Shown here: piece after piece, positions 52,758 through 53,762 of the stretch | How the letters are laid out: each line of letters starts with the position of its first letter | Position numbering within the stretch: position 1 is the stretch's first letter | Source: Escherichia coli | GTDB taxonomy: Bacteria > Pseudomonadota > Gammaproteobacteria > Enterobacterales > Enterobacteriaceae | Length of the DNA stretch: 64,000 bases | Assembly (NCBI RefSeq): GCF_044324875.1 | Contig: NZ_CP172185.1 | Strand: one strand, 5' to 3' | The notes under the pieces: model-generated | Seen by the model: the letters and a program-made list of their open reading frames with translations, nothing else | Databases searched by the model: none | Told to the model about the DNA's origin: nothing | Translations under genes and position numbers: made by a program

Positions 52758-53080
52758 ACTTTCAGGCCTCTCTCATGTAACCAGTGGGTTGCACGCAGCC
52801 TGGCGTTTTCCTCACCGGCAAGCAGTGAGCGGATAATCCCGACCGCCTCGCTGTCGTCGTCCTTCACCGCGGTATGAAGAGTGATACCCCGGGCCACGCC
52901 ACGCTTTATCGTGATGACGCCTTTTTTCTCCAGTGCGCGAAGATGTTCCACCGCTGCATTCACTGAACGGTATCCCAGCATGGTTGCCACCTCCTGATTG
53001 GTTGGCGGGAAGCCACGTTCTTTCTGGTAAGAAATCAGCATATCCAGCACCTGCTGCTGGCATTGAGTTAACGTCGTCAT
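52754..53080 (-). CDS. LexA-N-terminal-like winged-helix DNA-binding protein
   Basis: 108 aa; LTQCQQQVLDMLISYQKERGFPPTNQEVATMLGYRS resembles the LexA DNA-binding domain; lacks the S24 peptidase domain. Confidence 0.55.
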   Translation of the reverse strand: MTTLTQCQQQVLDMLISYQKERGFPPTNQEVATMLGYRSVNAAVEHLRALEKKGVITIKRGVARGITLHTAVKDDDSEAVGIIRSLLAGEENARLRATHWLHERGLKV

Positions 53081-53762
53081 GCCGCCATCTCCCTGACCAG
53101 TTTTTCCGCCTGCTGGCGAACCTGCGCCAGAAACGCCTCACCACATGCCTCAAGTTCATCGCGCCCGATGTAGCTGATTGCCGGTCCCTTCCAGGTCTTG
53201 TCGAAAACAGCAATAGCACCAGCGAAGAAAGCGCCTGTCGGCACCTGCTTCTCGTCCTTCGGTATAAACCAGGCAGGCAGTTCAAAACCAATACGCCCGC
53301 GAATAAAAGCAATATGATCTGCATCTTCCGGCCACCACACTTCGCTGGTGGCCGCTTTGATCAGGAAAACATAGCGCCCGCCCTTATCACGCATGGCACT
53401 GGCATGTTTCATGATGTAACGCATGCCGGTGATGTATTGCCCCTCATGCTGACTGGCGCGGCTGTATGGGGATTACCAAAGGCAGCACCTTTAAGCTCCG
53501 CAAGACGTTCTGACCAGTCATGCGCCAGCGCGTTATCTTCCGCCGTGTAATACGCGGCACATTTGGCGTTATCACCGTCAGTAAACAGATCCAGAACAAA
53601 CGGGCCAAACAGTGTGTTAATTCCCCAGAAAATGTTGTCCGGCGTGCGCCACTGATCGCCCACTTCCTTCAGTTCATGGGCTGGTTTGTTCCGCAGTTCC
53701 ACCAGTGCCTGACAATATTTATTACTCATTAAGCCCCCACGTAATTCCCTGACAGATACCAC
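53077..53762 (-). pseudogene. Phage Dam-like N6-adenine DNA methyltransferase, disrupted by a -1 frameshift in a C4 run inside the NPPY motif
   Basis: ORF 53409..53762 ends ...GAAFGNPHTA...; adding one C to the cccc run (plus-strand gggg 53468..53471) gives ...FGNPPYSRASQHEGQYITGMRYIMKHA... continuous with ORF 53077..53424. Confidence 0.65.

Follow-up and report, generated by a model that had tools for sequence, protein, structure and literature searches.

The window analysed here, a stretch of 64,000 nucleotides from an Escherichia coli genome, contains a prophage of approximately 39.4 kb integrated at the lambda attachment site (23582..62983). The element lies between ybhB/bioA and ybhC and is flanked at either end by an exact copy of the lambda att core GCTTTTTTATACTAA (23582..23596 and 62969..62983). 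It is a non-lambda, SfV/CPS-53-like prophage, yet it carries a lambda-type integrase (61825..62895) using attB-lambda, and its cargo comprises gtrA, gtrB, a type-specific gtr gene, a contractile tail and HK97-type head genes. Relative to the closest complete prophage, found in strain 300033, two segments are mosaic: the type-specific gtr gene (25215..26702, +, 495 aa) has no match there, and the tape-measure and tail-assembly proteins (33415..35724, -) are 24-45% identical, compared with 97-100% for the products of the flanking genes. A Kiwa anti-phage defence pair, KwaA (173 aa, 276.9 bits) and KwaB (294 aa, 497.8 bits), occupies positions 48756..50167 (+) between the Q antiterminator and the lysis genes, a spot at which the prophage of strain 300033 harbours unrelated genes. 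The chromosomal part of the window (1..23500, from cecR to ybhB) reaches a best identity of 98.4% among the 5426 complete RefSeq E. coli genomes, none of which attains 99%, and the host lineage, judged by these values, seems to be unrepresented among them and may be Shigella or an uncommon branch of E. coli.

The early-right operon of the prophage includes a frameshifted phage N-6-adenine-methyltransferase gene at 53077..53729 (-), delineated by homology, by profile matches and by a gap relative to its relatives. The stop codon of the upstream gene, coding for a YfdN/PerC-family protein (53729..54223, -), overlaps the methyltransferase start (TAATG), and the methyltransferase stop is in turn overlapped (ATGA) by the start of the downstream gene, coding for a protein of 108 aa that bears a LexA-like DNA-binding domain (52754..53080, -). 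Nothing resembling a promoter or a terminator was found adjoining the methyltransferase on its strand. A replication-initiator-like gene (54220..55161) contains 4.3 tandem copies of the 15-bp unit CAGATTTTGACGGGT at 54789..54852, which encode the repeat peptide DPSKSD/ASKSD and resemble origin iterons such as those of lambda O.

A previous sequence-only reading of the window had proposed that two adjacent minus-strand ORFs represent the two halves of a single methyltransferase, separated by a frameshift at a cccc run (gggg on the plus strand, 53468..53471) inside the codons of the NPPY motif. Both proposals were borne out: the coordinates and the reconstruction are exact, and the restored protein of 217 aa matches a phage protein at all 217 positions. 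The gene (53729..53077, -) measures 653 bp instead of the normal 654 bp coding for 217 aa, and in place of an uninterrupted ORF of approximately 217 codons the window holds ORFs of 106 and 115 aa in different frames. Across the lesion the minus strand reads ...GCT GCC TTT GGT AAT CCC CAT ACA GCC GCG..., with a run of four Cs (53471..53468, -) where almost every relative has CCCCC, and the deletion site falls between the codons for Pro87 and Pro88 of NPPY. As encoded in the window, the catalytic motif IV is N-P-H-T; adding one C yields ...AFGNPPYSRASQHEGQYITGMRYIMKH..., a single frame of 217 codons in which N-P-P-Y is regained. The alignment with the closest prophage shows one single-base gap, at 53468, a result far beyond chance.

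The N-terminal ORF (53409..53729, -) codes for 106 aa, of which residues 1-87 are native and the remaining 19 form an out-of-frame tail, HTAAPVSMRGNTSPACVTS, ending at a premature TGA (53411..53409, -). The longest mechanical ORF for this half extends to a GTG at 53762 (53409..53762, -; 117 aa), but homology places the true start at the ATG of position 53729 (MSNKYCQ...), the GTG being a feature of the mechanical ORF only. The C-terminal ORF (53077..53424, -) codes for 115 aa from the ATG at 53424, or 111 aa from the ATG at 53412, corresponding to native residues 103/107-217, and contains neither motif I nor NPPY. The premature TGA overlaps the in-frame ATG of the C-terminal frame (ATGA, 53412..53409, -), an arrangement in which termination-reinitiation could give rise to the 111-aa C-terminal fragment and keep translational coupling to the downstream genes.

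The restored protein scored 255.6 bits against the equivalog profile TIGR01712 (phage N-6-adenine-methyltransferase), above its cut-off of 97.05, and matched the Pfam family PF05869 'Dam' with an E-value of 1.2e-45, so that the label 'Dam-like' given in the sequence-only reading is right at the family level. Escherichia phage PhiR40_1 has a methyltransferase identical to it over 217/217 residues, and the copies found in SKA5, Stx2c phages and others reach 98-99.5% identity. Conservation was assessed by aligning the restored protein with five diverse homologues (31-50% identity), taken from phages of Salmonella, Aeromonas, Klebsiella, Lactococcus and Paenibacillus. All six aligned sequences share N86, P87, P88 and Y89, together with seven more residues downstream of the break, namely T128, I143, G145, R146, F149, A167 and F169. 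The N-terminal product retains the segment LDLFTDG which, judged by its position, is probably the AdoMet-binding motif I. A sequence search for a relative of solved structure found none, the best E-value being 0.75.

The closest characterised relative is the nin-region methyltransferase of phage VT2-Sakai, orf32, which we take to be M.EcoVT2Dam. It scores 265.9 bits against TIGR01712 and conserves NPPYS, but it measures 175 aa as opposed to 217 aa, shares 31% identity with the window protein and occupies a different genomic position. A passage of PMC6602927, citing Radlinska and Bujnicki (2001), reports M.EcoVT2Dam as GATC-specific, a specificity that, as an argument by analogy, is not confidently transferable to the window methyltransferase at 31% identity. 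The role of phage Dam-like enzymes has been described as poorly understood (PMC7556043). If the window enzyme were GATC-specific, the host Dam would make it redundant in a lysogen, and its loss would have consequences solely in lytic growth, or in hosts that are restricting or dam-deficient. A control of the prophage's own gtr genes by the methyltransferase, through P22-like Dam/OxyR phase variation, was considered and rejected, as the region upstream of gtr has one GATC, not two pairs.

Intact versions of the gene are present in related prophages and clearly dominate. The 851-bp neighbourhood of the lesion matches, with 96.5-99.8% DNA identity, a block found in approximately 1690 of the 5426 complete E. 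coli genomes. At a coverage of at least 80% the block is also present in 41 phage records (50 with any match), SfV, SfII, mEp460 and Stx2a/Stx2c phages among them. The annotation of this block is constant, with a PerC/YfdN gene followed by the phage N-6-adenine-methyltransferase (654 bp) and a LexA-family gene, and 'phage N-6-adenine-methyltransferase' is the annotation of the orthologue in approximately 1700 complete E. coli genomes. In phages, the gene is intact in 40/40 records, with no run of four Cs among them. The allele with four Cs was detected by exact match of an 81-bp probe in two (FORC_031 and SCU-482) of the approximately 1716 complete E. coli genomes carrying the region, and the six-C version of the probe matched exactly in one, elppa4; since identical flanks are demanded by the probe, these counts are lower bounds. 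In elppa4 (NZ_CP083512.1, 5056458..5056540) the sixth C shifts the reading frame of the methyltransferase by +1. At the protein level, 75 collection blocks contain the exact 106-aa frameshift product and 37,205 the exact intact protein (about 0.2%); the cluster entry of the 106-aa product counts 37 contigs. Variants in run length thus represent approximately 0.1-0.2% of copies, and the split form is derived and rare, contrary to the alternative envisaged in the sequence-only reading that a two-ORF arrangement might be ancestral. In FORC_031 and SCU-482 the four-C allele is already marked 'frameshifted' by PGAP in public annotation.

Whether the lesion is real depends chiefly on its occurrence in other assemblies. 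The window's own haplotype, with four Cs, is found in at least three of them. GCA_029450875.1 shares 12,321 bp with the window, with 2 mismatches and 0 gaps; GCA_902839305.1 differs by 3 mismatches and 0 gaps over 12.3 kb; and GCA_965643075.1 matches over 7,458 bp at 99.88% identity, with 9 mismatches and 0 gaps. The prophage of the latter is mosaic beyond the shared segment, and a different module replaces Kiwa. To judge from their SNPs or their recombinant arm, the three carriers are distinct genomes sharing the same allele, and all four members of the haplotype, the window included, have four Cs. The occurrence of the same haplotype and run length in distinct genomes is strong evidence against an isolated homopolymer error.

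The quality of the window itself points in the same direction. Compared with the prophage of strain 300033 (approximately 97.5-97.9% identity), three one-base homopolymer differences were found in approximately 35 kb, which is no surplus of such indels, and no other prophage gene is broken, 46 out of 46 of the other genes shared with strain 300033 being full length and without stops. As regards the remaining differences, at 39735 the window has G4 where strain 300033 has G5, in the intergenic spacer following the major capsid gene, a change that appears harmless. At 61481 the window has T5 and strain 300033 T6; here the ORF of the window (61170..61514, +, 114 aa) is intact and the copy of strain 300033 is annotated as 'frameshifted', in the opposite sense to the methyltransferase difference.

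The best surviving alternative is nonetheless a homopolymer error of sequencing or assembly, in which case the strain would truly have five Cs and an intact gene. The allele with four Cs is found on at least four haplotypes, which differ from one another at no fewer than 35 positions in 1.45 kb. They are those of the window group, of FORC_031 together with five JBRXB* assemblies, of SCU-482, and of JAVQOD01. Among these, the JBRXB* assemblies, SCU-482 and JAVQOD01 are visibly indel-rich: aligned with clean relatives they show 7-32 gap openings per 3.5-5.5 kb, many neighbouring genes are broken, and their four-C calls may be artefacts. In SCU-482 (locus extract L003, 12200..15450), five consecutive early-operon genes and the methyltransferase are all annotated as 'frameshifted', and alignment of the region with a clean relative gives 32 gap openings in 5.5 kb, a picture that suggests a locally noisy assembly more than gene decay. 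The site is therefore also prone to sequencing artefacts, as the four-C calls in indel-rich assemblies indicate, and this distribution suggests that the length of the run has changed, or was misread, more than once. Also in favour of an error are the six-C allele, seen once, and the absence of the source genome from the RefSeq complete set (best chromosomal identity 98.4%). Set against the gap-free recurrence of the four Cs in at least three distinct assemblies over 7.5-12.3 kb, these observations leave an error in the window unlikely.

Less probable still is a slippage-prone on/off switch, a contingency locus whose C-run would toggle between four and five bases. The presence of four Cs on at least four haplotypes and the existence of a six-C allele speak in favour of such a switch. 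Phase-variable genes, however, typically have tracts of seven or more bases, and the run in question has only four or five, with no long simple-sequence tract; CCCCC is, moreover, the simple product of the Pro-Pro codons CCC-CCA. There is no length variation within the lineage of the window, all of whose members have four Cs, and across the approximately 1716 genomes the variants are restricted to the two with four Cs and the one with six mentioned above. The other four-C carriers are, with the exception of FORC_031, mostly noisy assemblies. We consequently regard a switch as very improbable.

A related reading would see in the C5 run, imposed by the two proline codons, a mutational weak spot that has been struck more than once, and independently, in several lineages. 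It might draw on the four haplotypes with four Cs, the single genome with six, and the deletion breakpoint of the K-12 orthologue three bases away, and we give it the same slight credence as the switch. If true, lysogen populations would lose an orphan methyltransferase time and again and could also recover it, and the run would behave as a slow evolutionary switch. Finally, a recoding event, either programmed -1 ribosomal frameshifting or transcriptional slippage, could in principle still give the full-length enzyme, a -1 shift after CCC reading CCA-TAC and regenerating NPPY, but this is extremely improbable: programmed-frameshift signals were not found, the site (U CCC CAU) offering no X XXY YYZ heptamer at the run and a re-pairing of CCC to UCC, the 82 nt downstream being no better folded than shuffled sequences (z = +0.84; 163/200 shuffles fold as well), the C-run being far too short for polymerase slippage, and the four-C form being rare and derived rather than a conserved arrangement.

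Of the three options named in the sequence-only reading, a genuine pseudogene is favoured: the identical, gap-free haplotype speaks against the sequencing error, and the shortness and constant length of the run against the switch. We conclude from the comparisons above that the lesion is probably a real and fairly recent one-base deletion, which has turned the gene into an ordinary pseudogene within an otherwise intact prophage. The deletion, from C5 to C4, would have arisen most simply by replication slippage within CCC-CCA, the codons for the two prolines of NPPY, in an orphan N6-adenine methyltransferase of the prophage. Translation would proceed natively up to Pro87 and continue through 19 wrong residues before reaching the stop. 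The truncated product would keep the N-terminal AdoMet-binding part and lose Pro88, Tyr89 and the whole C-terminal half, and should be unable to methylate. Loss of this accessory gene of the early-right operon is presumably tolerated, and the broken allele has presumably been inherited by a small clade of lysogens; such tolerance would follow if the enzyme were GATC-specific like M.EcoVT2Dam and hence redundant with the host Dam. The C-terminal fragment might still be made, and a residual non-catalytic role is conceivable.

Two observations bear on the age of the event. The restored protein shows no amino-acid change relative to the copy of an active phage, suggesting that the frameshift is recent or is the only lesion so far, and the loss looks recent in that, besides the absence of extra changes in the restored protein, the 46 other shared genes are intact. 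The finding matters little beyond being a clear case in which the deletion of one homopolymer base has cost a prophage an accessory gene, although it has practical consequences. The locus should be annotated as one pseudogene and not as two 'methyltransferase' genes, the two fragments being listed separately in public records. The same C-run is miscalled in noisy long-read assemblies, and a call of four Cs in such assemblies needs read support. If the family acts in prophage induction or anti-restriction, the lineage would offer convenient natural knock-out test strains.

Among known systems, the nearest are the lambdoid prophages of the SfV, mEp460 and Stx2c type, whose methyltransferase (SfV 'dam', WP_000066917.1 of E. 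coli PMV-1, PhiR40_1) is the same gene as that of the window. The gene order, from PerC/YfdN through the methyltransferase and the LexA-like gene to RusA, is shared, with 96.5-99.8% DNA identity, and the difference lies in the C5 run, one C of which is missing in the window, splitting the ORF and destroying NPPY. Another prophage 'DNA adenine methyltransferase', M.EcoPA8orf6770P, is encoded in a Stx prophage, targets 16S rRNA and raises spontaneous induction, and its natural disruption by IS629 has a phenotype (PMC10810198). A link between the window gene and this Stx-prophage rRNA methyltransferase (Gong et al. 2023) was rejected, the latter being a DPPW, MT-A70-type enzyme from the early-left genes (gp5) and belonging to another family.

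The sequence-only reading had also invoked a methyltransferase pseudogene in CPS-53 of E. coli K-12 as a sign of recurrent loss. It is indeed the same gene: yfdM (CPS-53/KpLE1), located beside yfdN, is the orthologue of the window gene, with 97.3% identity over its first 262 bp, and is likewise non-functional, being annotated as 'incomplete; missing C-terminus'. Recurrent loss holds in a broad sense only, since the lesions are different. In contrast to the C4 of the window, yfdM keeps CCCCC, reads N-P-P-Y-P-W-stop and was truncated by a large deletion instead of a frameshift. Its homology breaks off immediately behind the NPPY codons, only a few bases from the C-run (locus extract L017, 3255..3285), and beyond the junction, at which a TAC is shared, lies tail-fibre gene sequence with a counterpart at 28250..28280 of the window.

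FORC_031 and SCU-482 have the identical one-base deletion and the same 106-aa product as the window, on different haplotypes. Unlike that of the window, the prophage of FORC_031 is degraded and integrated at thrW, and the neighbourhood in SCU-482 is full of other frameshifts. In the phasevarions of Haemophilus, Neisseria and Helicobacter, the frame of a methyltransferase is likewise set by the length of a simple repeat. Phasevarion repeats are long and differ from one sibling cell to the next, whereas the run in the prophage methyltransferase comprises four or five bases and is fixed within its lineage.
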